Of a DNA stretch of 64,000 nucleotides, positions 17,050 through 53,162 are shown piece after piece. The translations under genes were made by a program, and so were the position numbers. Under the pieces are notes generated by a model that was not told the origin of the DNA, ran no database searches, and worked only from the letters and a program-made list of their open reading frames with translations. Positions within the stretch are counted from its first letter, which is position 1, and the number at the start of each line of letters is the position of its first letter. The DNA is from an uncultured candidatus Brocadiaceae bacterium. Lineage in GTDB: Bacteria; Planctomycetota; UBA1135; UBA2386. Where the stretch lies: the NCBI GenBank assembly GCA_964542765.1, contig CAZIVO010000001.1, forward strand, positions 390 to 64,389. Reading direction: 5' to 3'.

Positions 17050-18072
17050 TTACTTGGTGCCCAAGGTCATGGAGAGACCGTTGGAGAGGGCAAAGTTGGG
17101 CGAGCGGATGACGAGGGCTTGTATTTCGGCCGAACCACCGTTGAGGGTTGGACTCATCAGATTGGCTGGCAGGGTGGTTGATCCATTTTTTGCCGCCGTA
17201 CTGAGGACTATTACCGGCAGCTTCAGCTCGATCAGGATCGAGCATCCGCCGAGCTTGATCGGTGTCCCGGCCTTGGACAGTCCCAGCGCGAGGGCCACAA
17301 CTTGTCCTGATGCTGTTGGCGCAATCCGGAAGCCGTAATCACGGTTGCCGAGCGCGGGAATGGATGCCGCGATGAGACTTGGAGCCACAATATTGCCGAC
17401 AGCACAGGAGCTGCCGTGAGTGTTGGTCCTGGCATTGGGGTGGTTGTGTGCCAGCGGCGTGGGTGTGGTGTCGCGGAAGAACGCTGATGCCGGAGTTGGC
17501 TCGGCAGCAGCCGTGTAGTCCAAGGAGAGGGTGTCCGATGCCAGGGGTGATGGGGCTGCTTGGCCGCTCCGCCAGCGCCCACCTGCAACGGCGATGTTTT
17601 CACGTTTTTGTCCGGGGACTCCCCAGCTGACCCAGTCTTGAATGGCCGCTGGGTCATTCATCATGATGTTCTGCTGGGTATTGAAGAGCGCCAATGCGCC
17701 ACTCACCTGACTGAGCGGTTCCGCCTTGAGGGCGAAGAGGAAGTGATACACCGTATTGCCGGTCCAGATATCCTTCTTCGTGCTGGGGATGACGGCCGAG
17801 AGCCAATGAACGCGCAGGTAGGCCCCCGGTAAGATCTCTGTTCCTGAGGGAAACCCGAACCAGTAGTTGTTGGCCATGTTCGGCGTTTTGGTCGCCTGGT
17901 AGATCGCCCATTGTGAGAGGCCGACCTTGTTCGAACCCATGTTCAAGAGCTCGATCCACTGGGTGCCCCCGTTCCCGGCGTCGAAGTTGATTTCGCTGAT
18001 CACGACCTGTGACCGACTGGTTGCGGCGAGGAGAAGTGCCGCGCAGATACCTAGAGAGAATGTTTTTTTCAC
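17050..18072 (-). CDS. secreted lamin-tail-domain (LTD) protein carrying the shared C-terminal module
   Basis: GTG 18072 starts a signal peptide VKKTFSLGICAALLLAATSRSQ. LTD signature VVISEINFDAGNGGTQWIELLN. The last 122 aa (17050-17418) resemble the tails of six other secreted proteins in the window. The upstream part of ORF 17050..18552 looks non-coding. Confidence 0.7.
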   Translation of the reverse strand: MKKTFSLGICAALLLAATSRSQVVISEINFDAGNGGTQWIELLNMGSNKVGLSQWAIYQATKTPNMANNYWFGFPSGTEILPGAYLRVHWLSAVIPSTKKDIWTGNTVYHFLFALKAEPLSQVSGALALFNTQQNIMMNDPAAIQDWVSWGVPGQKRENIAVAGGRWRSGQAAPSPLASDTLSLDYTAAAEPTPASAFFRDTTPTPLAHNHPNARTNTHGSSCAVGNIVAPSLIAASIPALGNRDYGFRIAPTASGQVVALALGLSKAGTPIKLGGCSILIELKLPVIVLSTAAKNGSTTLPANLMSPTLNGGSAEIQALVIRSPNFALSNGLSMTLGTK

Positions 18073-18321
18073 CGGTCGCACTCTTTGTTTTTGGGCTCGA
18101 TGGGACCCGGAGAAACCCGGGTTATGGGCGGAGGAACCGCAAGCAAGGATACCACACCACATGAAAGATCGGGGGCACGGGGGGCTCAAGGCCTTGCTCC
18201 AAAATGGTCGATAGAAGAGGAGTTGGGGCTGTGGCCCCATTGCGGCCATGTAATGGGGAACTGGCCGTTGTCGGCTTTTGCGAGAAGCGCAGATCTTTTG
18301 GCTCGGATGGGATGAATTGAC

Positions 18322-19218
18322 ATGGTGATCACGTGGAATCTTGGATTGGCATTGGCCCTTGCGATGCCGGTGGCATCTGACTCTGGCTGTTGCAGTGCCG
18401 AGCCCGTGCCGACGACGCTGACCGCGCTGCGCAAGAACCCTGAAGCTTTCAGGAATGTTTGGGTCACCTTCCCGGTGCAGTTCGCATCGATAGGGAAGGT
18501 TTCCAATCCTTTTTTCACGAGGTTCGTGCCGTCGGAATATGCAAATTTTCATGCCTGGGGAGGCGAACAGGCGATCTGGCGCAAGCCGGAATACGACAAT
18601 GCCTTCGGCCTGCTATTTCTTTCCAAGGGAAGCCAGCATCTGGACAGGCTGTTCCAGCTGAAGCTCTACGACCGGGTCAGGTGCAAGGCGATCGTTCGCG
18701 ATGCTTTTCAGGGCCAGCCGTGGGTGGAGGTTGTTGAACTCGAGCGATTGCCTCACAAGGTCAACACCGCGACCCTCAGCCACATTTATCGTGGCGAGCA
18801 GCACATGGCCAAGGGCAAGTGGAACCGAGCTATTTCGGAGCTTTCCCTGGCGCCGATGGCGAGTATTCCGGCCACCGTCAAGGCTTCGGTGCACGGTAGC
18901 CTGGGGGAGTGCTACCTGAAGATTGGCGAGTCTGCGGCCGCCATCAAGCAGCTAGACATGGCGATGGCCTTACTCGGCGACGAGACCACGGCCGGGATTC
19001 GCCGCCTGCATGCCGCAGCCAAAATAGGACCAGCAGCCGAGATTGACCGACGGGTCAACAGGCGGTCGATCAAGGATCACGAGAGACCCATGTGGGAAGC
19101 CTTCGAGCCGGCCGTGGCTTTGAAGAGCACCACAACCGGGAAGGAAGAGAACCCGAAGAGTGGGCCGGGCGGTCCCACTCATCCGGCGCAAACCACGACC
19201 CCGTCCAGTTCGCGATAG
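18322..19218 (+). CDS. hypothetical secreted protein with TPR-like C-terminal half
   Basis: Signal-like N-terminus LGLALALAMPVASD. It is the only long ORF here and is followed by a strong intrinsic terminator. Confidence 0.55.
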   Translation: MVITWNLGLALALAMPVASDSGCCSAEPVPTTLTALRKNPEAFRNVWVTFPVQFASIGKVSNPFFTRFVPSEYANFHAWGGEQAIWRKPEYDNAFGLLFLSKGSQHLDRLFQLKLYDRVRCKAIVRDAFQGQPWVEVVELERLPHKVNTATLSHIYRGEQHMAKGKWNRAISELSLAPMASIPATVKASVHGSLGECYLKIGESAAAIKQLDMAMALLGDETTAGIRRLHAAAKIGPAAEIDRRVNRRSIKDHERPMWEAFEPAVALKSTTTGKEENPKSGPGGPTHPAQTTTPSSSR

Positions 19219-19263
19219 GGGATCTGCCTGAGCGGAAACCTTCCGCTTTCAAGGGGAGGATCG

Positions 19264-19295
19264 GGGCGGGCCTTTGGGCCCGCCCTATTTTTTTT
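19264..19295 (+). terminator. Rho-independent terminator
   Basis: Perfect 9-bp GC stem GGGCGGGCC/GGCCCGCCC with loop TTTG, followed by TATTTTTTTT. Confidence 0.75.
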
Positions 19296-19393
19296 GCCCG
19301 AAAACCTTCGCCACAAGCTTCGTTTCTCTCCCTGGTGTGATCCGTGCCGCCCCGGTTTTGTCGGCAACCCATGTTCCCTGTCGGAGCTGGCTC

Positions 19394-19399
19394 TACAAT
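19394..19399 (+). promoter_or_regulatory. -10-like hexamer TACAAT upstream of ctaA
   Basis: GGCTCTACAAT lies 36 nt upstream of ATG 19435. No convincing -35 element was seen. Confidence 0.3.
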
Positions 19400-23955: not shown

Positions 23956-25341
23956 ATGATCTTCGCGAAAGCAAATCTTTCCCACCCGTTCGCACAGCGT
24001 GTGAGCGCAACAGCCTTGACGATGGCGTGCCTGCTCTTTGGGCAAGGCATGACTGCCCAGGGAGGATCAACTCCCAGGTGGACCTTCAAGCCCGATGCGG
24101 GGCATCGGGTGATTCCTGGCACGAACTGCGCGCCGATGGTCGTTTCTTCGACTGAGTACTACCTCAATTACGTCACCGTTCGGACACAGTGGATGGCGAA
24201 ATCCACCGATGGATTGAAATTCACCAATCCGACCCGATACCGCGACATTCGCTACAACCCTCATGTCATCGAGATGCCCAAGCGAGACGCGAACGGCAAT
24301 CGCATTTGGCGCAAGTACCGGCACGACATGAATACCGGCTACTTCTACAGCGAGAGTTCGACCGATCGGGTGAACTTCACCAAGGACCCAGGCGTCCGCT
24401 ATACCCCGCATCCGAGTGACAAGGGCCGGGTCGGAGTGCATTGCCAGTTTACCGACAACAAGGGCGGCGTGGTCTTGCTCTACATCGGAGATATGCAGCA
24501 AGGCGGTGTCAACAATGTGCGCCGCGCCTATTCCACCGACAACGGCTGGACCTTCAAGTGGGACCGTGGCAACGTTTTCGATGACGCCAGGTACGGTGGC
24601 GGTGGCTGGAGCTATGTCGATCCCCGGCAGTGCAAGCTGCCCGATGGCAGGATCGCGATTTTTGTCATGCAGCAAGGGGCCCGGCCGCCGCACCCGCCAC
24701 ACCGCAAGGTGGGTACGATCCACTGCTTCTTGAGTGACGACGGCGATACCTTCACGAAGGAGCCTTATCTCAGCCTTCGCCCCGAGGACTTCACGGAGTT
24801 TCCGGTTTACTCGCTGAATGACCCTTGGGTGGTGCTCTTGCCCGACGGTCGCTACCGGATGTATGTCACCGGGACTGTGCCGGACCCATCGAGTCCTGGG
24901 AATTACACCCAGGCCATCATCAGTGCCGTGACCGAGAGCAACTTTGGCAGTGGCTGCAAGGGTTCCTCGGGCCAGCGCCCTGTGATCGGTCAGCTGGGAG
25001 AGCCTTCCGTCGGCAGTGCCAGCTACAAGGTCTCGCTGAGCGATGGGCCAGCCCGCGGGGTGGTGGCCTTGTGTCTGGGCGTTTCCAGTACGCGGTGGGG
25101 GTCTTTGACGCTCCCGCTCGATCTGAGCTCCCTGGGAATGACAGGGTGCGAACTTTTGGTGTCACCGGAGTTGTCCTTGAGCAGTTCGGCGACGAGTGGC
25201 CGGGCTACGGTGAGCGTGCCGATTCCTGACAATCCGAAGCTGCGTCGCGCCAGAGCCTATGCGCAGTGGTTTTGCCTCGACCCGGGGGCGAACAGGACCG
25301 GGATCACCGCGTCTGACGGATTACGGATCGATATCTACTGA
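23956..25341 (+). CDS. secreted Asp-box (BNR-like) beta-propeller protein, glycoside-hydrolase-like, with the shared C-terminal module
   Basis: Signal-like N-terminus. Repeated S-x-D-x-G-x-x-F/W boxes are present (STDGLKF, STDRVNF, STDNGWTF, SDDGDTF). The last 129 aa (24952-25341) form the shared tail. Confidence 0.65.
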   Translation: MIFAKANLSHPFAQRVSATALTMACLLFGQGMTAQGGSTPRWTFKPDAGHRVIPGTNCAPMVVSSTEYYLNYVTVRTQWMAKSTDGLKFTNPTRYRDIRYNPHVIEMPKRDANGNRIWRKYRHDMNTGYFYSESSTDRVNFTKDPGVRYTPHPSDKGRVGVHCQFTDNKGGVVLLYIGDMQQGGVNNVRRAYSTDNGWTFKWDRGNVFDDARYGGGGWSYVDPRQCKLPDGRIAIFVMQQGARPPHPPHRKVGTIHCFLSDDGDTFTKEPYLSLRPEDFTEFPVYSLNDPWVVLLPDGRYRMYVTGTVPDPSSPGNYTQAIISAVTESNFGSGCKGSSGQRPVIGQLGEPSVGSASYKVSLSDGPARGVVALCLGVSSTRWGSLTLPLDLSSLGMTGCELLVSPELSLSSSATSGRATVSVPIPDNPKLRRARAYAQWFCLDPGANRTGITASDGLRIDIY

Positions 25342-30971: not shown

Positions 30972-32132
30972 GTGAACCGCAAGCTATCTTTTCTGCTCAT
31001 GGTCAGCCTCGGCTCGACCCTCGTTGCCCAGGGTCAGATGACCACTCCGCCCGTCGGAGTCGACAAGGAAGGCAGCTACGACTGCATTGGCTTTGGCTGG
31101 AATCCTGCCATGACCCATCAGATCGTCGATGACTCGCACGCCAACGGTAAGAGCGTCGCGATCAAGCGGATTTCCTTCCGTCCCGATTACCGCAACCAGA
31201 ATGCCATCGGTCGGACCTGGTCGAAGGTCACGGTCGAACTTGCGCATGCGGACTGGAGTTCGCTGGATGTCTTTCCGAGAACGGAAAACGGGGACGTCAA
31301 GCTCATGGATCAGCCGGTTGTCGTCTTCGACAAGGAGTGGAGTTTCCCGGCGATGCAGGGCCTGCCGCCGCTCCGACCCGCTCCTTGGGGCGGTCCCAAG
31401 AACAGTGTTGGCTTCACCTTCTCCAAGCCTTGGGTCTACAACGGTAAGGACGCGATTTTCCTGCGCTTCAAGTTCAGTGGTGGCAAGGCCGACAACAACC
31501 AACCCTGGAAGGCCAACCAGTCGGGCTTCGAGTATTTTCTGGATTCGATGCCGCACGCGGACTGGAGGGTCACCGATCTTTATGGCGCGGGCTACGGCAA
31601 GGGTAAGGGCAAGAGCGGCAGCAAGATTTGCTATGACTCTTCCTTCGTCAGTGCCAAGGCTCCTGGATATCTCAAAGCTTGGTTGAGGACGCCGGGCGGC
31701 CGGGTCAAGTTCGGTATGCAGACTTCATACACGGCGCCCAAGGGATCCGTATTGATCGCCCTGGGAACGAAGGGCAACGCCAAGGGATTCGACCTCGCCA
31801 CGGGTTGCACGGGCCTGTTCGTCGATCCTACCGGCCCCTTTGCGGGCGTGGTGCTGGCGGCACCGAACAATGCCAAGGGCATACAGAGCGCCTCATGGGA
31901 CTTCCCCTGGAAGGTGTGGATGACCGACCTCTGGGTGCAGGCGGGCTGGGCCGACTCGAAGACAAGTCGCCTGCGCTTGACCGAGTCCTACCGGTTCTCG
32001 ATCAACACGCCCCAGCGGGCACGGGTCATGGCCACGGTCACCGACCCGGGTGGAGGCAAGAAGGACGAGGAAGTGCTCTTCCCGTGGTCCTTCGCGCCCA
32101 AGTACATCCCCTACATTCGCTACGAATACTGA
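30972..32132 (+). CDS. hypothetical secreted protein (possible internal copy of the shared tail module)
   Basis: The GTG start has GAAGGAA upstream and begins a signal peptide VNRKLSFLLMVSLGSTLVAQG. No family was recognised. Region 31641-32003 loosely resembles the shared module (LIALG..GC.GLFVDP...WVQAGWAD...L). Confidence 0.6.
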   Translation: MNRKLSFLLMVSLGSTLVAQGQMTTPPVGVDKEGSYDCIGFGWNPAMTHQIVDDSHANGKSVAIKRISFRPDYRNQNAIGRTWSKVTVELAHADWSSLDVFPRTENGDVKLMDQPVVVFDKEWSFPAMQGLPPLRPAPWGGPKNSVGFTFSKPWVYNGKDAIFLRFKFSGGKADNNQPWKANQSGFEYFLDSMPHADWRVTDLYGAGYGKGKGKSGSKICYDSSFVSAKAPGYLKAWLRTPGGRVKFGMQTSYTAPKGSVLIALGTKGNAKGFDLATGCTGLFVDPTGPFAGVVLAAPNNAKGIQSASWDFPWKVWMTDLWVQAGWADSKTSRLRLTESYRFSINTPQRARVMATVTDPGGGKKDEEVLFPWSFAPKYIPYIRYEY

Positions 32133-32341: not shown

Positions 32342-35110
32342 GTGCTGGATCGCGTTGCCTGGATTGCATCAGCTTGCCTGTTGAGCGTGGGCTTGCTCGG
32401 TCCGAGCGTCTTGGCACAGGGTTATCCCTACTTTGAAAGTCCGCAAGCGCATCCGATCGCGATTTCTGCAGATGGCCAGCGACTCTACGCTGTCAACACG
32501 CCCGACCATCGATTGGCTGTCTATTCGCTGGCGCTACCGACGGCCCCTGTCTTGATCCGGGAAATCCCCGTTGGCCTCGAGCCGGTATCGGTTGCTGTGC
32601 GTTCGCAAAACGAAGTATGGGTGGTCAACCATGTTTCCGACTCGGTCAGCGTGGTGGATGTCTCTCGCGGCATTGTCGTCGACACGGTTCGAGTCAGAGA
32701 TGAGCCCGGCGACATCGTGTTTGCCGGTGATCCGCAGCGAGCTTTCGTTTCATCGATGACCAAGCGGCGAGTTGTCGTGATCGATCCGATGACACGTTCG
32801 ACGACCTCTATTCGCGTGTTCGGCGATGACCCGAGAGCTCTGCTGGCGAGTGCCGACGGCAAGACAGTTTGGGTTGCGATCACGAGGTCAGGGAACAAGA
32901 CGACGATCGTTCCCCATACGATGGCGCCGCCACCGCCGAAGCCCACAAACCCTGCGCTGCCGCCGGCACCGCAGCAGGGCATCATCGTCGATGCTGATGA
33001 CCCAGCGTGGAAATCGAAGTTGAACGTGAAGCTTCCCGACTACGACGTTGTCGAGATCGACACGATGACTCTGAGCGTTCGTCGTAACTATTCAGGTGTG
33101 GGAACGAACTTGTTCAATCTGGCGTTGCGTCCGGGAAGCGACGAGATCTGGGTTGCCAACACGCATTCACGAAACCGTGTTCGCTTTGAACCAGTGATCC
33201 GAGCCCATGCCACAGACAGTCAGGTTACGCGAATCACGACGGGTTCGAACCCGACAGTCACGCCTGTCAATCTCAATCCCGGCATCGACTACAGCAAGTT
33301 GCCCAATCCCGTGGCCTTGTCTTCTGCATTGGCACAGCCCACGGACATCGTCTTCGATGCCACCGGTAAGGTCGCGTATGTTGCTGCTTTCGGAACGGAC
33401 AGGATTGGCGTCATCGATGCCAGCGGCAAGGTGACCGCGCTCATCGAGGTCGGCGATACGCCGGGCACCAAGGTTGCTCCGCGCACCAAGCGTGGTCCTC
33501 GAGGACTGGCCTTGCATCCGAGCAAGCCGGTGCTCTACGTCCTCAATCGCCTGTCCAACAGCATCTCTCTCGTGGACACAGCGCAGAACAGGGTTGTTTC
33601 GGAGATCGGGATGTTCGATCCAACGCCGAAGCAGATTCGCGAAGGCCGCGGCTTCCTGTTCGACGCCAAGCTCTCGGGCGCCGGCACCATGTCTTGCGCC
33701 TCCTGTCATATCGACGCTCGCACCGATGGGCTTGCATGGGATCTGGGCGATCCCGGCGGACAGATGTTCAGCAACGGCACTCCGAACAAGCTTCACCCCA
33801 TGAAGGGGGCCTTGCTCACGCAAACCCTGCAGGGCTTCAAGGGCGAGCGGATATTCCACTGGCGAGCGGACCGACCGGGCCTCGCCACCTTCAACCCTGC
33901 TTTCGACGGACTGATGGGAGGGCAGGTGCTCAACGCTGCCGATCTTGCGACCTTCGTGGCTTACATGCAGGACATCTCCTTCATGCCGAATCCAAATCGA
34001 CAGATGGATGACACCCTGTCCAATGATCCAGTGGGGGCGAGCGCGCGGGATGGTGAGGTTCTCTTCAACACCAGGGACAATGTTGGCAGGGAGGGAAACC
34101 TGCAATTCAAATGTGTGGGTTGCCATACCAACGTCTCGGGGTCCGGCTCGTTTGGCTTTACCGGCTTGATCGGCCAGCAGACCAAGGTTGCCCAGTTGCG
34201 AGGTCTCTACAAGCGCACTGGCCGGGCGATATCGGCATCCGGTCGAACTGCAGGTTTCGGTTTTGGAGCCGATGGCTCCAAGGATGATCTGACAGGATTC
34301 CTCTCCTCGACTTCTCGCTTTACCGCGCAATTGACAGCAAACGAGAAGAAGGCGATCGAACGCTTTTTGCTGGCGTTCCCGACCGGGAACGCGCCAACCG
34401 TTGGCTATTCACGCACGGTGACGGCGGCGAATATCGGCAGTATAGATGTGACCAACGACCTGACCTTGCTGATGTCACAAGCCGACGCTGGAAAGTGCGA
34501 TCTGGTTGTCAAGGGATCCCTCCGTGGCCAGCCAGTGGGCCTCTCCTATGACAGATTGACCAAGCGGTTCCTTCGTGATCGCAAGACCTTGCCAGCCATG
34601 GCGATCACCGAGCTGGCGGTGGAGGTGGTGAGGAAGGGCGCTGTGCTGACCTTCATGGGTGCGCCGCTGGGGACAGGTCGGCAACTGGGCATCGACCGTG
34701 ATGGCAATGGCATCCTGGATGGCGATGAGGGCATTCTCCGCTACGGCGACCCGACACCCGTTTGCGCGACCGTGTTGCGGACCGAAGCGAACCAAAGGCC
34801 TCGGATTGGCGAAAAGAGTTTTGCTCTCATCATTGCTGGTTCGCCGGCCAGAAGCAGCGGCTGGCTGTCCCTGTCGAGAAAACGAACCAATGCGAGGGTC
34901 GTCGACCTGGATCTGCTGATCGATCTGGCAGCGGGGGTCACCTTTTCGGTCCGCGCCGACTCCCGGGGCGAGGCGATCGTGTCCCTGCCCTTACCCGATA
35001 CCAGAAAGCTGGTTGGTGCCAGGTTGCGCGCGCAGGGAATCATGCTTGCGCCTTGCGGCCGGTTGAAAGCGGCGGCTTCGGCCGGACTCGAGTTGACGCC
35101 GCGGCGGTGA
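32342..35110 (+). CDS. secreted beta-propeller (YVTN/YncE-like repeats) fused to a di-heme cytochrome c peroxidase/MauG-like domain, with the shared C-terminal module
   Basis: GTG 32342 follows GAGGA and begins the signal peptide VLDRVAWIASACLLSVGLLGPSVLAQG. Propeller-type repeats are present (LYAVNTPDHRLAVYSL, VWVVNHVSDSVSVVD, LYVLNRLSNSISLVD). Two CxxCH heme motifs are present (CASCH, CVGCH). The tail spans 34763-35110. Confidence 0.75.
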   Translation: MLDRVAWIASACLLSVGLLGPSVLAQGYPYFESPQAHPIAISADGQRLYAVNTPDHRLAVYSLALPTAPVLIREIPVGLEPVSVAVRSQNEVWVVNHVSDSVSVVDVSRGIVVDTVRVRDEPGDIVFAGDPQRAFVSSMTKRRVVVIDPMTRSTTSIRVFGDDPRALLASADGKTVWVAITRSGNKTTIVPHTMAPPPPKPTNPALPPAPQQGIIVDADDPAWKSKLNVKLPDYDVVEIDTMTLSVRRNYSGVGTNLFNLALRPGSDEIWVANTHSRNRVRFEPVIRAHATDSQVTRITTGSNPTVTPVNLNPGIDYSKLPNPVALSSALAQPTDIVFDATGKVAYVAAFGTDRIGVIDASGKVTALIEVGDTPGTKVAPRTKRGPRGLALHPSKPVLYVLNRLSNSISLVDTAQNRVVSEIGMFDPTPKQIREGRGFLFDAKLSGAGTMSCASCHIDARTDGLAWDLGDPGGQMFSNGTPNKLHPMKGALLTQTLQGFKGERIFHWRADRPGLATFNPAFDGLMGGQVLNAADLATFVAYMQDISFMPNPNRQMDDTLSNDPVGASARDGEVLFNTRDNVGREGNLQFKCVGCHTNVSGSGSFGFTGLIGQQTKVAQLRGLYKRTGRAISASGRTAGFGFGADGSKDDLTGFLSSTSRFTAQLTANEKKAIERFLLAFPTGNAPTVGYSRTVTAANIGSIDVTNDLTLLMSQADAGKCDLVVKGSLRGQPVGLSYDRLTKRFLRDRKTLPAMAITELAVEVVRKGAVLTFMGAPLGTGRQLGIDRDGNGILDGDEGILRYGDPTPVCATVLRTEANQRPRIGEKSFALIIAGSPARSSGWLSLSRKRTNARVVDLDLLIDLAAGVTFSVRADSRGEAIVSLPLPDTRKLVGARLRAQGIMLAPCGRLKAAASAGLELTPRR

Positions 35111-35144: not shown

Positions 35145-36974
35145 CTAGGGGAAGATGAACCGCACCGCCTTTGAGCTCGCCGGGACCGCTACCGGCCCCT
35201 TCAGATCGAGCAGAAAGTGTGCGAGATAGCCCGGGGTTCCCTTGAGGCGTTTCACCTTTGGCAGGGGCAAGCGCAGCCCGCGCAGTCCGGTGGTGCCGAT
35301 CACGCCGACGAAGCCGGGTAACTCCAGGCTCAAGCTGAGCAGTGGGTCGTAATTGAGGGGGATGGAGGTTGGTCCGATGCGGATGCCGGGCGAACTGCCG
35401 AACGACATGCCGATGGCGTGGTTCGTGTTCTTGTTCGACAGGCCTGCTGCGAAGAGATGAAGTGCGATTCCTCCTGGGTCGGTGGCTTCGAGAGTTTCGA
35501 TTCCGGCTCGGATCGGATGAGTGGTGGCATCGGCCGCATTGGCCTTGCCGGGCGTGCCCTTGTCGCCAGCAGTGCCGAAGGATGTCACCGCGGTTTTGAA
35601 GTTGGCGGCCGTGGGCGGGGCTTCCAGATCGATGCGCTCCGCGGTCTTACCACTGCTACCAGGAAAGCCGGTGCTGTAGGAAAGGGTTTCGATCGAGCTT
35701 GCGTTATTGCGCAGGGTCAGCGAGTCCTTCGTGTTGTTCAGCGCAAAGGCTCCTGATGGCCAGGTGTGGCTGAAGGGGATGCCGCCATTGCTTGTGGAGT
35801 CTCCATCTTGAGCCAGCAGGAGTCGTTGGCCGGGAAGGATGCGATAGGGAGCGGTCACCGTGAAGGATCCCGACCCGGAGGTGATGATGAGACCGTCGAG
35901 GTTCAAGGGTCCGCCGGAGCGGTTGAAGACCTCGATGAATTCGCCCGAGGAGGTGGAGGGCGTCCGGTGCAGTTCCGAGATCACCAGATCGCCAGGTCCG
36001 GGACGGTTTCCCGAGGCTTCGTCGGTATAGAGTTCGACGCTTTCGCCGGTCACGGTCTCGATGCGGTAACGCCACCCATCGGTTTTCAGGGTCAGGTGGC
36101 CCCGCGCATTGGTGTAACCGCGGTGGCGGAGACCCCCGTTCGTGCTGAGAATCAGCGGTGAGCGCCCCCCCGATGTCAGCCGCGATAAGACGTCTTTTTG
36201 AGGTGACTGTTGGCTGTTGTTGTTGGGCACCGAGACGACGGCCACTTCGGGTGACAGGTACCGAACCAGATTGGCATTTGTCGCGTCCGAGATGCCATGG
36301 TGATTGGCGTGATAGACATCGATGTCACCGCAAGCCTTGGCCACAGGACTTTCCATGTCATAGGTTTTATTTTTGGCTCCGCCGGTCAGATCGCCACCGA
36401 GCCATAGCGAGAAATCACCGTACTCCACCTTCAGCACGATCGATGCCGAGTTCTCGTAGTTGCCGGTGCCGGTGATCTTTTGCTGGCCGACACCAAGAAC
36501 GAAGCCATCACGCGCGATCACCGTGGCCTTGGCACCGCCGCCCAGGTCGAAGACTTGACCGGGTGTGACCGTCTTGCGCTTGTTTTGCGCGGCCGCAGTG
36601 TATTTTTGGTACGAACTGTTACTGGGTGCCGATCGGGTGCCCCGGTCCCAGACCTCGGTCGTTGGCATGGCATTGATGACCTCGGGGATGCCGCCGATAT
36701 GGTCGGAGTGGTAGTGGCTGGCGACGAACCAATCGATCTTCGTGGCACCCAGAGCCTTCAGCTTGGGAAGCATCGCGCGGGTCCCCATCTGGGGGTAGCC
36801 CGCATCGAAGACCATGACCTTGCCGGTGGGGCCGATGATGATGGTACCGTCACCCCAGGAAACCACATTGACGAAGACCACGGTGAGCCCCTTGGGCGGC
36901 TGGGTAGGGTCGCCCGAAGGACCCTGCGCGAAGAGGGTGGATGTGGCGAGGAGAGCAAAGGCGAGGCGAAGCAT
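35145..36974 (-). CDS. secreted metallo-beta-lactamase-fold hydrolase (ComEC-C-terminal-like) + lamin-tail domain (LTD) + shared C-terminal module
   Basis: ATG 36974 starts the signal peptide MLRLAFALLATSTLFAQG. MBL motif SHYHSDHIGG. LTD signature LVISELHRTPSTSSGEFIEVFN. The tail spans 35145-35474. The N-terminal 107 codons of ORF 35145..37295 were rejected. Confidence 0.75.
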   Translation of the reverse strand: MLRLAFALLATSTLFAQGPSGDPTQPPKGLTVVFVNVVSWGDGTIIIGPTGKVMVFDAGYPQMGTRAMLPKLKALGATKIDWFVASHYHSDHIGGIPEVINAMPTTEVWDRGTRSAPSNSSYQKYTAAAQNKRKTVTPGQVFDLGGGAKATVIARDGFVLGVGQQKITGTGNYENSASIVLKVEYGDFSLWLGGDLTGGAKNKTYDMESPVAKACGDIDVYHANHHGISDATNANLVRYLSPEVAVVSVPNNNSQQSPQKDVLSRLTSGGRSPLILSTNGGLRHRGYTNARGHLTLKTDGWRYRIETVTGESVELYTDEASGNRPGPGDLVISELHRTPSTSSGEFIEVFNRSGGPLNLDGLIITSGSGSFTVTAPYRILPGQRLLLAQDGDSTSNGGIPFSHTWPSGAFALNNTKDSLTLRNNASSIETLSYSTGFPGSSGKTAERIDLEAPPTAANFKTAVTSFGTAGDKGTPGKANAADATTHPIRAGIETLEATDPGGIALHLFAAGLSNKNTNHAIGMSFGSSPGIRIGPTSIPLNYDPLLSLSLELPGFVGVIGTTGLRGLRLPLPKVKRLKGTPGYLAHFLLDLKGPVAVPASSKAVRFIFP

Positions 36975-36979
36975 GGCGG

Positions 36980-36991
36980 TCAGTATAGCCG
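36980..36991 (-). promoter_or_regulatory. -10-like element CGGCTATACTGA placed 7 nt before the ATG (possible leaderless transcript)
   Basis: On the minus strand the sequence reads GGCTATACTGACCGCC-ATG. TATACT ends 7 nt before the start codon and there is no SD sequence. It is related to the GGCTACATTGA element. Confidence 0.3.
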
Positions 36992-37060
36992 CCGATGTCA
37001 CGGGCCGTTGCCTTGGCGCCCCCGCGGCCCTGATATGGCCCGGACACCGGCTCGGGAAGG

Positions 37061-44787: not shown

Positions 44788-45303
44788 GTGTTCCGAAAGA
44801 CGAATTTGAAGCATTCGCCTGAAGATGCCGATGAACTCCTTGTGAGGCGTGCAAATGTGGTGATCGTGGCTTTTGGCCTGATGGCGGCCGTGGCGCTGGG
44901 TTTGATGATGCGCCATCTGGCCGAACTTCGAGGCGAGTCATTGCGTGATCTGGGCCAGCGTGAGGTCCGGAAGGTCTTTGGGGGCCGCCTGGCGGCTCCC
45001 GCGCAGTTGAGTTATCGAGACGATGGTCGTCGGGTGGTCATCACGATCCAGCCACGCCTCCCATCCTCAAGCCGTCGCCTGGCGGTGGAGGTGGGCCAGT
45101 TCGTCTGGCGACATATGGATGGCGACGAGGCACCCGAAGAGGTCGAGGTCATCACCATCCAAGGTGCTGGTGGCTCGCAGACTCGTCTTGTGGTGGAGCG
45201 GCCCTACATCAGCACGAAGAAGCTTGCTCCTTCGCCCGTGGTCACGGAGCGCGGGACCGACCCGAAGGCGGTGGTCGGTTCGCCGCAGCCCGGCGATCGC
45301 TAG
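44788..45303 (+). CDS. hypothetical membrane-anchored protein
   Basis: It is the only sizable ORF in this position and has one TM segment (VVIVAFGLMAAVALGLMM). The start is uncertain (GTG 44788). Confidence 0.45.
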   Translation: MFRKTNLKHSPEDADELLVRRANVVIVAFGLMAAVALGLMMRHLAELRGESLRDLGQREVRKVFGGRLAAPAQLSYRDDGRRVVITIQPRLPSSSRRLAVEVGQFVWRHMDGDEAPEEVEVITIQGAGGSQTRLVVERPYISTKKLAPSPVVTERGTDPKAVVGSPQPGDR

Positions 45304-46319: not shown

Positions 46320-48362
46320 GTGATGTTGTGTTTGGCATGGGTCTTGTCCTCCTTGGCTGCGGCGCCGCAAGAATCTGCGGCGGTGACGCCGGCGCTGGCG
46401 CGTTTCCATGTCGAGAACCGATCATCGTGGCGGCGGCAGGAGATAGCGCGGGTCTCGATCCCTTTTGCCAGGGGCGAGCGCCGTCAGGCGAGACGGTTCG
46501 TCGTCGATGGTGCGGCGGTGCCCGCCGTGACCCTGATTCGCTGGCCCGATGATTCTGTCGCGGTGGCGCAGGTGCATGTGCCGATGGTGCTCGATTCCGG
46601 CCAGGAGCGTGAGGTGCTCGTTCACGAGCACACGGACTCGGCAAAGGACCACCCGGCATTCAAGCTGGCTTGGCATCTGCAGGAATTGGCCGTGCAGACC
46701 GAGGTTGTCGATCCCTGGGGAAGGGTGTTCGTGGCCCTGTTGCAGGTTGGGTCACCGGTTCCCCCGAGTTCGGATCTGGTACGGGTCCGCCCCCTGCGTG
46801 GTGTCCATCGCCATGCGGATGCCGGTCTCCTGGAGGTGCGCGGATGGCTGACGACCTTTCGCGGTGAGCGCCGGGCGGAACTGACGATCCTGCTCGACAA
46901 TGGCATGACCGAAACGAAGGCGCGAGCGCCGAGCCTCGGCCCCCTCCGCCTGAGCCGCTTTGCGATGGTTACGCCTGCGGGCTTGCGGGTGCGCCCGCGC
47001 CACACCGCAGAAAATCTGCTGAAGCCGCCCGAAGAGGTGGAGGGGGGAGGCTTTCGCCACATTCTGCTCGGCCCGTCCGAGCAGTCTTATCTCGGCGACC
47101 GCACGGGTAAGGCGTATCGCTTCGATCTCTTCCTCGATGGTGAGGGGGTCGGCGACGGTGAGCGTGAGTCAGCCATGGCTGTTGCCGAGGCTCCGCTGAG
47201 GCCCGTTCCCGGGCTTGATTGCGTGCGAGAGAGCGGAGCCTTCTCCGCCCATGGTGGTCCTGGCCCGGGCGGGCTCGACAGGACCGTCATCGTGGTGAAG
47301 CAGTGGCATGGGTCAGCGCGGTTCGGCCCGATGGCGGGGCATGGCGACTCCGAAGATAGCGCCGCACAGGGTACTCCGCGCAATGGTCCATCAGCCCTGC
47401 ACAATGCCGTGCGATGGCACTCCGCAGCCTTGCTGGATATTGCCGAGACCATGGTCTTGCAGCAGTGTCTGCGGCCGACTCCGGGCAGGAACCCTCGCTT
47501 GCCCGAGGTGGGTGAGCCCTGGCGCCAAGGCTTGTCGGCGCGGGCGATCGCACGCCCACATGGCTGGACTCCGCTGGACTACGAGCATGTTTCGGTCAAT
47601 CTTCTTTACGATTGGTTCTGGCTGACCGGAGATCCTCTGGCACGCGATGAACTGCGCCGGGTCGGCACTGGCCTGCGCCGATTGCTCGAGCATCTACCCT
47701 TCATGACTTCGCGCGGTGAGGGTTGGTGTCTGCAAGCCGGGGTCCTGATCGCGCGAGCGACCGGCGAGGACTCGATCGTGAAGTGGTTGGCGGAGCGTTT
47801 CCGCCAAGATGTGTTGCCCGTGCTCGGAGAGATCCCCGAACCCTTTGCGATCTCCCAGCCGGCGCACGAGTCAGCTTTCGGTCCTGGTGTTCGTTTCGAT
47901 GCCCCCTGGCAAATGGCAGCTCTCGTTCATGGTCTGCACGCGATTCATGCCGAGACAGGAGATGATGACATGGCTGCGGCCGCTGTTCGTGTGGCTCGGA
48001 TCATGGCCGGCCCGGGATGGCTCGAAGGTGTCGGGCCCAAGTATCTGGTCAGCGCCACCGATGCCGCCCGGCACTCCATGCCGGTCGGTCATGGCCCGCT
48101 CCACGGGACGGCAGTGATGGAAGTCGGCGCCTTCGTTCTCGCCGCTGATCTGGCGACGAGCCTGGGCGATGGTGCGAATGCGGGATTGTTCCGCAGTCGT
48201 GCGGCAACGATTGCGCGAGCACAAACCGACACGGTTGAAGCGCGGTCGAATGTCTGGATGCAGTTGTGGCTCGATCGCGGCACACCATCGGTAAGAGAAA
48301 TTGTCGATGACGAGGCGAAGGATGGCAGGGGCGGGGAAGAATCTCGTGACGGCCATCCTTAG
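46320..48362 (+). CDS. large secreted hypothetical protein (beta N-domain + alpha/alpha-toroid-like C-domain; possible polysaccharide lyase/hydrolase-like)
   Basis: Signal-like N-terminus MMLCLAWVLSSLAAAPQ. The N-terminal pattern VSIPFARGE....WPDDSVAVAQVHV and the later helical LLYDWFWLTGDP recall lyase/hydrolase toroids. The fold call is weak. Confidence 0.55.
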   Translation: MMLCLAWVLSSLAAAPQESAAVTPALARFHVENRSSWRRQEIARVSIPFARGERRQARRFVVDGAAVPAVTLIRWPDDSVAVAQVHVPMVLDSGQEREVLVHEHTDSAKDHPAFKLAWHLQELAVQTEVVDPWGRVFVALLQVGSPVPPSSDLVRVRPLRGVHRHADAGLLEVRGWLTTFRGERRAELTILLDNGMTETKARAPSLGPLRLSRFAMVTPAGLRVRPRHTAENLLKPPEEVEGGGFRHILLGPSEQSYLGDRTGKAYRFDLFLDGEGVGDGERESAMAVAEAPLRPVPGLDCVRESGAFSAHGGPGPGGLDRTVIVVKQWHGSARFGPMAGHGDSEDSAAQGTPRNGPSALHNAVRWHSAALLDIAETMVLQQCLRPTPGRNPRLPEVGEPWRQGLSARAIARPHGWTPLDYEHVSVNLLYDWFWLTGDPLARDELRRVGTGLRRLLEHLPFMTSRGEGWCLQAGVLIARATGEDSIVKWLAERFRQDVLPVLGEIPEPFAISQPAHESAFGPGVRFDAPWQMAALVHGLHAIHAETGDDDMAAAAVRVARIMAGPGWLEGVGPKYLVSATDAARHSMPVGHGPLHGTAVMEVGAFVLAADLATSLGDGANAGLFRSRAATIARAQTDTVEARSNVWMQLWLDRGTPSVREIVDDEAKDGRGGEESRDGHP

Positions 48363-48391
48363 GCCTCGGCTCCCTCATCGGGTGTTGCCGA

Positions 48392-50665
48392 TCAGTAGAT
48401 CACGGTGGTGAGGACGTTGGTGGCCGTCAGTGGCAGCTTGAGATTGTTGGGATCGTAGGAGACCCCTTGCCAGTAACACTGCATGGCGGGGATGTTCTTG
48501 GAGAAGGTGAAGTTGAGTTTTCCATGACCGTTGGCGCCGGCGCTCAGGGTGAAGGCCTCGAGCAGATTGGTGAATCCGTTGCCGATCGAAAGGTTGACGA
48601 GGCCTGATAGGCGGCTCGGACGGTTGCTCAGCGAGACCAGGACGAGAGACTTCCAGTGACTGCCACTGTGGATTTCGAATGGTTTGGAGGGAAAGCCTCG
48701 CAGCACGATGGTTGGCCCACCGAGGACTCCGGGGTGATTGCCGGTCACGGAGAGATTTAGCGGATTGCTTTGGCCGGCCGCATTGGAGACCAGAATCTGG
48801 TGTTTGCCGATGTTGTGAGGGCTCGGCGGGGTCAATTTCAGCGTCGTGTTGTTGACGATGCGAAAGTTGGAGACAGATTTTCCTCCCAGGGTCAGCTGGG
48901 AGATGCGACCGAGATTGCTACCGGTCAGCGTGACTTCCCTGGGCTGCCAGGAGGTCACTGACGATGGGCTGATCGACGTCAGTTTCGGTTGCTTTACCGA
49001 GCCTCCCTTGCCCAGCCCGCTGACTGCGAATTCTACCGACCATGTCCCGAAGGTCGGCGCGTTCGTCCAGGTTGCGACGAGGCGGTAGGTTCCGGATTTC
49101 GGCGTGAAGGTGATCTTCTCGTAGCTGTTGTACTTGCTGGTGTCGGAACCGACGAGTTTGTTGGCGGCATCGAAGATGGCGAGGTCGAGATCGTAGGGCA
49201 CCATCCCGTTCTTGCGCATCCACGTCATCGTCACGGACAAGGGCACGCCAGCTTTGGGCGTGAAACTCGCCGTCCAGGTTTTGTTCGGTGTGGTGATCCT
49301 GTCGGTGCGGTAATCCACGGCCAGCGCAGCCTTCACGGCCTGGTCGCAATCGAGAATGCCGCAGCCGTACGAGTTGCGCTTGGTCTGGGCGCCCTTCGTC
49401 GAGTTGAGGAGGATAGCTTTCGCTTCGCAGGCACTCATCTTTGCATCGACCTGTCGCACCAGCGCCGCACCACCGGCGACCATGGGCGCGGACATGGAGG
49501 TGCCGCTATTGATGACTGTCGAGCTTTCATTGTCCGGGGCGAGCGACCGCACCGTATCCCCGACGGCAACAATGTCCGGGTAACGTCGCGGCCACCGAGA
49601 ATTTTGGATCGGTCCCAGCGCAGAAAAGGCCGAGATGCTCAGGCTCGACTTGTCGATCGATCCGACGGCGAGACCGTTCCAACCATTCTGGCTTCTGGTG
49701 GTGTTGCTGCCGCTGTTGCCGGCGGAAACGGTGATCAGGACGTCGGCGTTGTAAGCGGCATTGTCCAGCGCGATCTGGACGGGGTGGCCGATGTCGGGAG
49801 ATCCGGAGAAGGAGTTGTTGGCGACGGCGATGTGATGCTTGGTTCGGTTGGTCGCCACCCACTGCCATGCGCTGATGATCGAACTGTCGAGAGCTGAGCA
49901 GTTAGGGTTATCGGAGATCTTGACTCCCACGAGCCATGCTTCGGGAGCGATACCCTCATCCTTGTCCCAGGCGTTCGCGACCGAGCCACTGACGTGGGTG
50001 CCATGCCCGCAGATATCTTCGCTGCCGTGGCTGCTGGTGCCGGTGGCTACCAGCAGGCGGCTGCCCTGGATCCCACCCCCCTTGCGGTCGCTGGGATTCC
50101 CGTCCCGGTAGTATCCGCGGTGGGGCCGATTCGAGGTTGCCATGCTGGCGTCCACCCCGGTGTCGAGGATGGCCACGGCGACGCCCCGACCCTCGATCTC
50201 TACCCCTTTGGTCGTTTTACGGTCGTTGGCATCCTTGGCGTTGTGATGGGTTCTGTCCCGGGCGACGCGATTGGTTGGGCGACGGTAGAGATCGGGTGAC
50301 AGCCGTTCGATATTGTTCAGCGCGCGCAGCTTGGCGGTTTGCGCATCCGGAAGTTTCACGGCGGCGCCGTTGATGATCCACCATTGCTGCGTCACCGCGC
50401 CGCCCATCGCTTCCACGGCATGAACGAAATCCGCCTGATCGCGACGGACAGCCTCGTCGAGCCTGCTCACGATGGTGGCGATCTCGGCGGCCGGCCGCCG
50501 GCTGGTGATCGCCGCCCGAAACGCTTCGAGATCGAAGCTGCGGGCACGGAAGGTCACGATCCAGCGCGTGGTAGGAGCCTTCTCGACCTCGGGCTCTTGC
50601 GCTGCCGGCAGGCCGGCTAGCAGGGCGAGGGTGACGAGTTTGCAGGCGTGGAGACCCAGAGTCAT
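48392..50665 (-). CDS. secreted S8 (subtilisin) serine peptidase with I9-like propeptide, IPT/TIG domain and the shared C-terminal module
   Basis: Signal peptide MTLGLHACKLVTLALLAGLPAAQ. Catalytic triad motifs VAILDTGVD, HGTHVSG and SGTSMSAPMVAG. IPT-like segment PKLTSISPSSV...LTGSNL. The tail spans 48392-48742. Confidence 0.85.
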   Translation of the reverse strand: MTLGLHACKLVTLALLAGLPAAQEPEVEKAPTTRWIVTFRARSFDLEAFRAAITSRRPAAEIATIVSRLDEAVRRDQADFVHAVEAMGGAVTQQWWIINGAAVKLPDAQTAKLRALNNIERLSPDLYRRPTNRVARDRTHHNAKDANDRKTTKGVEIEGRGVAVAILDTGVDASMATSNRPHRGYYRDGNPSDRKGGGIQGSRLLVATGTSSHGSEDICGHGTHVSGSVANAWDKDEGIAPEAWLVGVKISDNPNCSALDSSIISAWQWVATNRTKHHIAVANNSFSGSPDIGHPVQIALDNAAYNADVLITVSAGNSGSNTTRSQNGWNGLAVGSIDKSSLSISAFSALGPIQNSRWPRRYPDIVAVGDTVRSLAPDNESSTVINSGTSMSAPMVAGGAALVRQVDAKMSACEAKAILLNSTKGAQTKRNSYGCGILDCDQAVKAALAVDYRTDRITTPNKTWTASFTPKAGVPLSVTMTWMRKNGMVPYDLDLAIFDAANKLVGSDTSKYNSYEKITFTPKSGTYRLVATWTNAPTFGTWSVEFAVSGLGKGGSVKQPKLTSISPSSVTSWQPREVTLTGSNLGRISQLTLGGKSVSNFRIVNNTTLKLTPPSPHNIGKHQILVSNAAGQSNPLNLSVTGNHPGVLGGPTIVLRGFPSKPFEIHSGSHWKSLVLVSLSNRPSRLSGLVNLSIGNGFTNLLEAFTLSAGANGHGKLNFTFSKNIPAMQCYWQGVSYDPNNLKLPLTATNVLTTVIY

Positions 50666-50885
50666 TGGTGTCAGATCGTGAGTTCGGGCGATGGTGCTTT
50701 CGCCGATGAGGCCGAGAAACGGGCTCCAAAGTCTACCCCGCAATGACCGTGCTGTGCGCCGTTCCGTATGCGACAGGCGCGCGCCGTGCGGATTTCCGGT
50801 GCGGTTGGGTTGCCGGGCGCTGTCAGTCCCATCAGAGCGAGGTTTGGAGCCCTGTGAGGTGCCTGCTGACTCTTTCGGGAACCTC

Positions 50886-53162
50886 TCAAAAGATGGAGGT
50901 GGTGAGGACGTTGGTCGTTTCCAGCGGGGTTTGCAGCCGCTTCGGATCGAAGGGGATGGTCTGAAAGAAGATCGCCTGGGAGAGGATGTTCTTGGGGATG
51001 TTCAGGATCAGCTGGGCATGGCCGCGGCCATCGCACTTGAGATTGGCGACTTCCCACAGGGCCAAGAAATGGCTGCCGATACCGAGGTCGACGACGTTGG
51101 GGATGCGGCTTGGCACCTTGTAAGGAGACAGCAGGACGAGGGCCCGCCAGCCGGCGTCGCTGTAGATGTCGTAGGGCGAGGTCTTGCTTCCGCGCATCAC
51201 GATGGCCGGCCCCTCGAAGGTGCCGGGATGGCTACCGTGGATGTTCATGGTCAGCGCGTTGCTGGTGCCGCAACTGGTTGTGATGTTCACCAGCCGAAGG
51301 CCGATGGTGGTGGGTTTGGGCAGGAGGAAGGAAATCTTGGTCGGCGAAGTCGCCGTGAATGTTCGCACGTCTTGATCGCCGACCGAAATCTTGAGGATGG
51401 TATTGAAGTTGGTACCGGTCAAGGTGATCGACCGTGCCGTCTGGTGGGATGCTGTGTTCGGGCTGACGCCGGTCAAGACTGGCTTGCTGAGGCAGGGTTT
51501 GCCGAGGCCGGAAATCGCGAAGTTCACGCTGCGGTTGCCATAGATGGGGTTCGTCCAGGCGATGTCGGCGCGGTAGAGAGCGGTCCGCACGGGCGTGAAG
51601 GAAACCTTCTCGTAGCCGTTGACAGGATTCAGATCGCCGACGACGAGCGCGCCACGGTCATCGTAGATCCGAAGATCGAGATTGTCGGGGATTTCTCGGT
51701 CTCGCCGCAGCCAGGTCAAGGTGACTGTTTTGGTGATTCCCTTGAGGACGCCGAAGGTGATCCGGCGGAGTTTCACCGGGTTGGTCATGCGCCCGGATTG
51801 CACGTCGCCGGTGAGGGCGGCAGTCACTGCGCGGTCGCAGCGCAAGACGCCAAGACCGTAGGCATTGCGATCCTTCTTGGGGGCTTCGGTCGTGTTCAAA
51901 AGGATCGCCTTGGTCTCGATGGCTGACAGGCGCGGTTCGGCTTGGCGAATCAGCGCGGCAGTGCCGGCCACGAGGGGAGCGGCGAAGGATGTGCCGCTCG
52001 CCTGGCTGAAGGTCTGCTCGCTGTTTTGCAGGGTGCAGTAGAGGTCTTTTCCGACAGCGACCATATCGGGATAGGTGCGTGCCGAACCGTGGAGAGGCCC
52101 TTGTGCGGAGAAGCTCGAGACAGTCTTGCTCTTCTTGTCGACGGAGCCGACGGCGATGCCGTTGAAGGCGCTTTGGCTGGCTGTCGTTGTCGCCGCCTTG
52201 TTGCCGGCGGACACCGTGATCAAGACGTCTGCATTGCGTGCGGTTGAATCGAGCGCTAATTGCACGGGGTCGTCGAGCTTCGGCGATCCGGAGAAGGAGT
52301 TGTTGGCGACGGCGATGTTGTGTGCGACGCGATGTCGAGCGACGAGTTGCCACGCGCTGATGATCCAACTGCTGAAGGCCTCCCCCTTGTTGTTGGCCAT
52401 CTTGATGCTGACGACCCAGGCTCCTGGAGCAACGCCATCATCGATCCGTGGGTCCGGGTCCCAGTTGTTGGCATTGGCGCAACCTGAAACAAAGGTGCCG
52501 TGCCCATGCTGGTCTTCGGTGCCCAGATTGCTGGTTCCCAGCTGGGCCTTGATGAGGCTTCCCTTGTACCCGCCTCCGGTGTGGTTGCTGGGATTGCCCC
52601 CCCGATAGTAGGCGCGGTGGGGCCGTCCCGTTCCGCCCATGTCCGCGTCGATACCAGTGTCCAAAATGGCGATGGCCAAACCATCGCCGCGAACATTCTT
52701 GCCGCCGACCATCATCTGGTTGGCCTGGTCGGCGCGGTGGTGACTCAAGCCGGTGGCTTCGCGCAGTGTGGCGCGGTGGATGGTGTCGGGAACGAGGCGG
52801 CGAATGTTCGCCAGTTGTTCGATTTCGGTGAGTCGGTTGGACGGGATTTCGATGGCGGCTCCATTGATGACCCACCACTGGTGGCGGACCTTTCCGCCGG
52901 CGGCCGCGACCGCCTCGACGAAGGCTTCTTGATCGCGCAGTACGGCGGCATCGAGATCTGCCACCAGGCGTTCGATCTCCGCAGCCGATCGGCGTTCGAG
53001 GATGGCCTCGCGAAACCCTGTGAGATCGAAGGATCGCTGTTCGAACAGCGCGATCACCTTGCGGGTCCGTGGTTCGGCCTGATCCTGGGCGGCGAGGATG
53101 GCTGATGAAGCCAGCCAGGCGCCTGCCAGGAGGGCGGGGATATTGATGTGTCGAGGCGTCAA
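50886..53162 (-). CDS. secreted S8 (subtilisin) serine peptidase, tandem paralog of 48392..50665 with the same architecture
   Basis: TTG start at 53162 (no in-frame ATG nearby). Catalytic triad motifs IAILDTGID, HGHGTFVSG and SGTSFAAPLVAG, followed by an IPT-like domain. The tail spans 50886-51236. Confidence 0.85.
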   Translation of the reverse strand: MTPRHINIPALLAGAWLASSAILAAQDQAEPRTRKVIALFEQRSFDLTGFREAILERRSAAEIERLVADLDAAVLRDQEAFVEAVAAAGGKVRHQWWVINGAAIEIPSNRLTEIEQLANIRRLVPDTIHRATLREATGLSHHRADQANQMMVGGKNVRGDGLAIAILDTGIDADMGGTGRPHRAYYRGGNPSNHTGGGYKGSLIKAQLGTSNLGTEDQHGHGTFVSGCANANNWDPDPRIDDGVAPGAWVVSIKMANNKGEAFSSWIISAWQLVARHRVAHNIAVANNSFSGSPKLDDPVQLALDSTARNADVLITVSAGNKAATTTASQSAFNGIAVGSVDKKSKTVSSFSAQGPLHGSARTYPDMVAVGKDLYCTLQNSEQTFSQASGTSFAAPLVAGTAALIRQAEPRLSAIETKAILLNTTEAPKKDRNAYGLGVLRCDRAVTAALTGDVQSGRMTNPVKLRRITFGVLKGITKTVTLTWLRRDREIPDNLDLRIYDDRGALVVGDLNPVNGYEKVSFTPVRTALYRADIAWTNPIYGNRSVNFAISGLGKPCLSKPVLTGVSPNTASHQTARSITLTGTNFNTILKISVGDQDVRTFTATSPTKISFLLPKPTTIGLRLVNITTSCGTSNALTMNIHGSHPGTFEGPAIVMRGSKTSPYDIYSDAGWRALVLLSPYKVPSRIPNVVDLGIGSHFLALWEVANLKCDGRGHAQLILNIPKNILSQAIFFQTIPFDPKRLQTPLETTNVLTTSIF

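Follow-up and report, generated by a model that had tools for sequence, protein, structure and literature searches.

What unites seven otherwise unrelated secreted proteins encoded within 64,000 nucleotides of a single contig (CAZIVO010000001.1) from an uncultured candidatus Brocadiaceae bacterium of the Planctomycetota? A first-pass annotation of this stretch, hereafter the window, noted by eye that a segment of about 110 to 130 amino acids (aa) recurs in all seven, in six of them at the C-terminus, and proposed that it is an undescribed sorting or anchoring module. Our analysis of sequences and structural models indicates that a single large family of C-terminal domains, as yet unnamed and with a predicted immunoglobulin (Ig)-like beta-sandwich fold, accounts for six of these tails. 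Taken as a whole, the proposal is partly supported: the observation was largely right and under-stated in scale, and the interpretation placed on it is reasonable but unproven. The window proteins (P1 to P7; most are open reading frames, ORFs) and the tails flagged in them (T1 to T7) are as follows, the canonical form of the module being defined by a hidden Markov model (HMM) described below.

P1, 17050-18552, minus strand: ORF with a lamin-tail-domain (LTD) head and a likely GTG start near 18081.
T1, 17059..17427, minus strand: canonical module at the C-terminus of P1, with the Cys pair in GSSCAVG and GGCSILI and the Gln in EIQALVI.
P2, 23956-25341, plus strand: gene with no Pfam match.
T2, 24937..25335, plus strand: canonical module at the C-terminus of P2, with Cys in GSGCKG and TGCELLV and the Gln in YAQWFCLDP.
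P3, 30972-32132, plus strand: protein with no Pfam match.
T3, 31641..32003, plus strand: doubtful match, internal in P3 and followed by an extension of about 45 aa.
P4, 32192-35110, plus strand: ORF with a lactonase/YVTN-type beta-propeller and a CCP_MauG-like di-haem region.
T4, 34772..35098, plus strand: module at the C-terminus of P4, whose HMM match starts after the first 16 or so positions, which include the first Cys.
P5, 35145-37295, minus strand: ORF with a metallo-beta-lactamase (MBL) domain and an LTD, starting near 36974-37001.
T5, 35163..35459, minus strand: divergent variant at the C-terminus of P5, with no Cys pair and His instead of Gln.
P6, 48392-50743, minus strand: ORF with Peptidase_S8, PPC and TIG domains and an ATG start at 50665.
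T6, 48398..48769, minus strand: divergent subtype at the C-terminus of P6, with no Cys pair and with Gln present.
P7, 50886-53162, minus strand: Peptidase_S8 and TIG domains; tandem paralogue of P6 (47% identity).
T7, 50889..51263, minus strand: the same divergent subtype as T6, at the C-terminus of P7, with no Cys pair and with Gln present.

All seven stretches lie where they had been placed by eye; six make up the final 109-129 codons of long ORFs, and T3 (31641-32003) is internal. The module is carried by six or seven of roughly 55 genes in the window.

A family of C-terminal domains

Within the window, T2 and T4 are 31% identical across 112 aa, with phmmer E values of 3e-5 to 6e-5 in a search of the 578 six-frame window ORFs, and T6 and T7 are 41% identical (E 1e-26); the pair T1 and T2 is marginal, and T3 and T5 are linked to no other tail. 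A word-indexed search, its index being too coarse for this family, returned one match for the T2 tail and none for those of T6 and T7. We aligned T2, this one homologue, T4 and T1 as the seed of an exhaustive profile search over 1.84 billion representative proteins, which recovered 6144 protein clusters (50% identity) at E<=1e-3 and 814 at E<=1e-10; one 2811-aa protein with 14 partial stretches (P0010) was set aside as an unrelated repeat protein. The canonical family HMM was then built from 149 external tails, without any window sequence, and scanned against the window ORFs. It recognizes T2 at 162 bits (E 2e-49, HMM positions 4-136), T1 over its full length at 43.5 bits (E 9e-13, positions 3-137) and T4 at 39.5 bits (E 1.5e-11, positions 17-135). 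At the level of sequence, then, T1, T2 and T4 are clear members of one domain family. Statistical significance of the by-eye resemblance is reached by these three tails against the HMM and by the pairs T2-T4 and T6-T7 within the window, and not by the other window pairs. The ORF 44788-45303 (plus strand) also matches the T4 tail (phmmer E 6e-4), yet has no family-HMM match; the similarity is probably compositional, or the ORF a shadow ORF.

The domain is about 125-135 aa long, with the consensus xxFGxGCxGSxGxxPxL...GxPxxGxxxFxxxL...LxLGxSxTxW....LPLDL...GxPGCxLLvS......dxxGxAxxxxPIPNxPxLxGxxxxxQWxVxDPxANxLGxxxSxGxxxxx. Hallmark motifs are FGxGCxG towards its start, a central LPLDL...GxPGCxLL and a closing G...IPxxPxLxG....Q...DP.aN.lG..SnG. 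The terminal block that had been recognized by eye ('[YFW]-x-Q...DP...S/T') is indeed the most conserved part, corresponding to the last two strands with their Gln, DP and SN motifs, and all but one of the 267 canonical copies (266) have its Gln. The 'GC.LL' strand, likewise noted at the outset, holds the second conserved Cys. Both Cys residues occur in 240 of the 267 copies, the second alone in 23, the first alone in one and neither in three; in T4 the second is absent, the first lies outside the HMM match and the Gln is kept, and in the divergent subtypes both Cys are missing.

The position of the domain is strict. Its envelope ends within six residues of the protein C-terminus in 148 of 151 proteins inspected, and within three residues of the stop codon in 111 of 118 genomic copies, which bears out the C-terminal enrichment expected of the module. 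A terminal aromatic residue, originally offered as a shared feature, does not hold for the family: the last residue of canonical members is mostly R, L, G or Q, and aromatic ends are confined to the S8-type subfamily. We also observe a recurrent architecture of about 310 aa (P0012, P0015, P0018, P0021, P0081, P0088 and P0100) in which a signal peptide is followed directly by an 'FGxGCxGS' motif, about 150 aa and the C-terminal module; judged from these sequences, the module's N-terminal strand motif seems to have been put to use again on its own.

A beta-sandwich had been predicted, and structural models agree. AlphaFold2 folds T2 (44 sequences) as an all-beta Ig-like sandwich with a pLDDT of 97.9 and a pTM of 0.90, and T6, from its own independent alignment of 32 sequences, with a pLDDT of 92.1 and a pTM of 0.82; strand order and spacing are the same in both models. 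Foldseek searches of the two models against the PDB return nothing at E<=1e-3. The best matches (TM 0.45-0.55) are generic Ig-like sandwiches, several of them common to both lists: the Deinococcus HPI S-layer protein, alpha2-macroglobulin MG, Ig V, NPC2/GM2-activator, NIS1 and LPMO-like domains. The invariant Gln, together with a weak Foldseek match to 8dj2, raised the idea of an intramolecular Thr/Ser-Gln ester or isopeptide cross-link, which we reject as unsupported, since no Thr, Ser, Lys or His that could act as its partner is invariant.

The remaining tails match the canonical HMM weakly, with independent E values of 0.07 for T7 (positions 84-135), 0.7 for T5 (positions 31-132) and 1.7 for T6 (positions 86-136), all three matches being collinear and C-terminal. 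Compared with the family as single sequences by hhalign, T3, T5, T6 and T7 are not significant, and profiles of the subtypes were needed. A search with full-length P6 and P7 yielded 94 S8 homologues, and every source named by organism is from the Planctomycetota or Planctomycetes. They comprise an orthologous group with the tail type of P6 and P7 (P0152-P0206) and the next-closest S8 paralogues (P0207-P0239), most of which bear the canonical module at the C-terminus (35-139 bits); the same S8 head is therefore found with alternative tails, canonical in the paralogues and divergent in P6 and P7. An HMM of the S8 tails scores T6 at 146 bits and T7 at 147 bits. In about 40 of 55 S8 orthologues the best weak match to the canonical HMM falls at positions 84-136 or so, at the extreme C-terminus. 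As a profile, 54 orthologous tails match the canonical family with a probability of 91% and an E value of 1.1e-6, locally over the last 52 columns, and an hhalign comparison of the S8-tail alignment with the canonical family alignment gives a probability of 87% (P 3.6e-6). The global alignment of the two is collinear, pairing 'W.sllfvS.Sn.PS.lPGiv.LgIGNnF..L' with 'a.L.lG.S.t.W....LPLDL...GxPGC.LL', and is essentially the alignment that had been drawn by eye. Apart from two unrelated S8 proteins, a metagenome scan with the S8 alignment led only back to the organism itself (98% identity).

When the ORFs in the genome loci described below are searched with T5 by phmmer, the matches are a tail with a like ending in locus L048 (E 1e-12), another tail in L015 (E 0.005) and canonical tails in L088 and L067 (E 0.018-0.1). 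Small profiles of T5 with one to three relatives match the family with probabilities of 74-84% (P 7e-6 to 3e-5) over 58-83 columns. Because of these subtype-profile matches, we take T5, T6 and T7 to be divergent members whose sequences point to loss of the Cys pair and, in T5, also to replacement of the Gln by His. T3 differs. It has no canonical-HMM match at E<=10; hhalign aligns it with the family collinearly over 90 columns, keeping the Cys, G-C, Gln and Asp positions, with a P value of 0.006, and one of 100 shuffles scored higher. Its membership, at a P of about 0.006-0.02, is possible on this alignment and unproven. The claim that all seven tails are one module consequently stands clearly for T1, T2 and T4, extends to T5, T6 and T7 as divergent forms, and is not established for T3.

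Distribution and host proteins

To see where the family occurs, a degenerate DNA pattern for LPLDL-x6-GC-x-LL was run over the GTDB species-representative genomes. It found 101 stretches, of which 89 carry an HMM-confirmed module. All 89 confirmed loci come from metagenome-assembled genomes (MAGs) labelled as Planctomycetota, as one of its sub-taxa or only as 'bacterium', with no other named phylum among them; the 12 unconfirmed matches come from other phyla or unclassified MAGs, and there is no cultured strain among the pattern matches in this genome set. The family is known so far only from uncultured Planctomycetota. Up to five pattern matches occur per genome (e.g., Prado171, ABC2.42), and at the protein level the pattern covers just 26 of 149 family members (17%); we therefore infer many more copies, at least some tens per genome.

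The heads to which the module is attached are diverse. Among 103 external members, Pfam identifies FG-GAP (13), Kelch propellers (9), beta-helix (5), DUF4082 (4), Laminin_G_3 (2) and NosD (2) domains, and one each of CHRD, S8, CARDB, class A beta-lactamase, reprolysin and Calx-beta; for many members Pfam finds no head. The largest head groups among the genome loci are reprolysin with a C-type lectin, and FG-GAP. Signal-peptide-like N-termini are found in 75 of 96 complete external members. In the window, a start codon, a hydrophobic stretch and then an AQ/SQ-type site mark the N-terminus of all seven proteins, a heuristic call that makes the signal peptides originally assigned to all of them plausible.

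Seven of the 103 external heads match the NCBIfam 'choice-of-anchor' R, Q or Z domains, and the TIG region of P6 passes the cut-off for choice-of-anchor Z (31.1 against 30). This label denotes surface proteins with alternative C-terminal anchors (bioRxiv 10.1101/2023.03.06.531300), so that the module occupies the usual place of an anchor.

The window itself is ordinary chromosome of about 61% G+C. Its other genes include GroES/EL, a sigma-54 activator, a proline racemase, an ABC transporter, CtaA, an M16 pair and M61, as well as an FHA and VWA protein (13564-15339, minus strand), a HEAT and VWA protein (1338-3077, minus strand) and a single tRNA, a tRNA-Val with anticodon TAC (63895-63971, plus strand). 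The GroEL is identical to copies in NCBI MAG GCA_030748075.1 and JGI metagenome 3300035204. A 680-aa ORF with no Pfam match (46320-48362, plus strand) adjoins the P6/P7 pair, and S8 pairs orthologous to P6 and P7 occur on one contig each in other MAGs too (e.g., P0180/P0185 and P0164/P0167). P4 also weakly matches the NCBIfam models for hydrazine synthase beta and for the beta-gamma fusion, at 78 bits where the cut-off is 1250; the likeness is one of architecture only, in a gene context that looks non-anammox. P1 (17050-18552, minus strand) and P5 (35145-37295, minus strand) are two secreted LTD proteins, and the fusion in P5 of an LTD to a ComEC/Rec2-like MBL domain suggests that it may be an extracellular nuclease.

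The proposed role of the module and its alternatives

One homologous globular domain occupies the C-terminus of exported proteins with unrelated heads and has expanded in one lineage, in keeping with the original description of a modular domain that recurs at the C-termini of otherwise unrelated secreted proteins. How might it act? The host proteins would be exported by Sec via their N-terminal signal peptides, and the module would fold outside the cytoplasm, where, in the canonical form, the two conserved Cys could make a stabilizing disulfide. It could then serve as a common address or retention unit that gathers diverse enzymes and adhesin-like heads at the envelope or cell surface, by a logic analogous, not homologous, to that of the C-terminal domain (CTD) of type IX secretion systems (T9SS). 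We prefer this reading, a sorting or surface-retention address for the cell envelope or surface, because of the terminal position, the promiscuous heads and the choice-of-anchor heads, and we give it an even chance of being correct. The last two strands would be the likely recognition or binding site, since their motifs survive even in the Cys-less subtypes.

Several observations weigh against an address of this kind. The window and the 89 loci (up to 8 kb each) contain no candidate translocon, sortase, receptor or processing enzyme, in a partner-gene search that was shallow and confounded by high-G+C shadow ORFs and orthologous synteny. No conserved motif, cleavage motif or typical linker lies upstream of the module, and neither model has a T9SS cargo domain or secretion-tag structure among its top 50 Foldseek matches. 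Proteins of 150-160 aa that consist of a signal peptide and the module only also exist (P0024, P0057, P0126). Moreover, tails diverge faster than heads, both between P2 and P0002 (62% against 81.5%) and among the S8 orthologues (median 35.5% against 46.2%), and module subtypes track head families, a pattern that fits action on the protein's own head. In the sorting-tag interpretation of the first-pass annotation, the modular C-terminal domain is supported and the tag function is conjectural, no processing enzyme or secretion apparatus being found in the window or the 89 loci. A Peptidase_M17 (leucyl aminopeptidase) gene does recur in 15 of the pattern-found loci (L014 and 14 others), for which the likeliest explanation is conserved synteny around one orthologous module gene, with no functional link.

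The last three of these observations (stand-alone modules, fast-diverging tails and subtypes that co-evolve with their head families) are also what would be expected of an accessory domain that binds a ligand (carbohydrate, lipid or protein) in the service of its own head and is not recognized by any sorting machinery. Such a domain would resemble a carbohydrate-binding module (CBM), lectin or ML-type sandwich and would have substrates, prey or matrix as its targets; a binding site could be built from the invariant polar Gln together with the DP and SN motifs, and both subtypes weakly match NPC2/GM2-activator (ML), CBP21/LPMO-like, alpha2-macroglobulin MG and S-layer Ig domains. All of the Foldseek matches are weak, however (E>=2e-3, TM 0.33-0.55), and the ML sandwiches in particular are not close (E 3e-3 to 3e-2, TM 0.32-0.44, root-mean-square deviation mostly 6-13 A). 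The module also occurs as a single copy in a strictly terminal position (about 95-98%), whereas binding modules are often internal or in tandem, and beta-lactamase, MBL nuclease-like, CHRD and di-haem heads have no substrate in common. We regard a binding role as the main alternative, at well below an even chance.

The address reading can also be taken a step further, to a cargo tag of an undescribed Planctomycetota secretion or attachment pathway with its own receptor or processing enzyme, in which the Cys-less subtypes would be variants handled by the same or paralogous machinery. In function the module would in that case parallel the T9SS CTD or sortase systems; we give this specific version a genuine chance, though one well below even.

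It is improbable that the module is an aid to folding or stability, or a transient secretion helper in the manner of the subtilase PPC or P-domain, removed after export. It does stand at the C-terminus of several proteases (S8, reprolysin) and its sequence is less constrained than that of the heads, but non-protease heads form the majority, P6 carries its own PPC elsewhere (residues 493-555), no conserved junction or cleavage motif is found, and a confidently modelled domain with a putative disulfide looks like a lasting part of the protein. Finally, a similarity due to chance or composition (the tails are Gly/Ala/Leu/Ser-rich and the DNA is 61% G+C), or an already named domain, is very improbable: several window tails are not significant in pairwise comparison alone and T3 is still at a P of about 0.006-0.02, but for the other six tails this explanation is refuted by significant HMM and profile-profile statistics, 6144 external relatives, two confident AlphaFold2 models (T2 and T6) and the lack of a common match in Pfam-A, NCBIfam or PDB sequences.

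Planctomycetota have unusual envelopes, and protein export and display in them are poorly understood. In this setting a single domain marks a large and highly varied exported set in an uncultured lineage, from integrin-like FG-GAP, Kelch and subtilase heads to ADAM-like reprolysin joined to a C-type lectin, the nuclease-like MBL-LTD protein and a di-haem enzyme. At the minimum it is a well-founded new domain family that would improve the annotation of the MAGs of this lineage and help to define a surface proteome or exoproteome. If the module is indeed a sorting tag, it would offer a direct handle on the matching machinery via phylogenetic profiling, and a portable tag for surface display.

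Comparison with known families and systems

The first-pass annotation could match the module to no named family, and neither could we. None of the seven window tails has a Pfam-A match to E 10, and 44 external members share no common Pfam-A family, their scattered weak matches being led by DUF4141 (5 of 44, E 0.04 or weaker). No common NCBIfam model is found for the seven window proteins and the same 44 members (E<=1), one of which matches an unrelated phosphoribosyltransferase model (E 0.019); PDB sequences give no match to E 10. Literature searches did not find the domain described, which, given their incomplete coverage, is weak negative evidence. By these sequence comparisons, the family is unnamed and new.

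In its predicted fold the module weakly resembles the Ig-like and E-set domains (TIG/IPT, CARDB, FlgD_ig, alpha2-macroglobulin MG, ML/NPC2), which are sandwiches of about seven to nine strands; unlike them it has hallmark motifs of its own and a strict C-terminal position, and no HMM match connects it to them. PPC (PF04151) and the subtilase P-domain are likewise beta-sandwiches C-terminal to an S8 catalytic domain. P6, though, holds a PPC separately, and the module is mostly found on non-protease heads.

With LPXTG, PEP-CTERM, GlyGly-CTERM and MYXO-CTERM the module shares a C-terminal position, a many-to-one logic and an occurrence behind 'choice-of-anchor' heads. Those and other small tripartite signals span 25-40 aa, in which a motif is followed by a transmembrane helix and then by a basic tail. 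The module, by contrast, is modelled as a globular all-beta domain of 130 aa that ends in a strand and has no hydrophobic helix, and for this reason it does not belong to their class; no NCBIfam sorting-signal model matched the window proteins or the 44 external members.

The closest parallel in logic is with the T9SS CTD (type A, Por_Secre_tail, TIGR04183/PF18962; type B, TIGR04131/CHU_C). No match to PF18962/TIGR04183 or PF13585/TIGR04131 was found among the window tails and proteins or the 44 external members (E<=1), and nothing like the T9SS core (SprA/PorV/PorU and others) is present among the scanned window ORFs and ten scanned locus ORFs. To our knowledge, no T9SS is known in the Planctomycetota. 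Both the T9SS CTD and the module are C-terminal beta-sandwiches on Sec-exported proteins with unrelated heads, present in many copies per genome, restricted to a single lineage and most conserved in their last strands. The T9SS CTD measures roughly 70-100 aa; the module is about 130 aa, has a conserved Cys pair, is found in Planctomycetota and has no sequence match to it. The module is thus not a T9SS CTD, PEP-CTERM, LPXTG or PPC; it is a new family of a familiar general kind, the C-terminal beta-sandwich common to secreted proteins.

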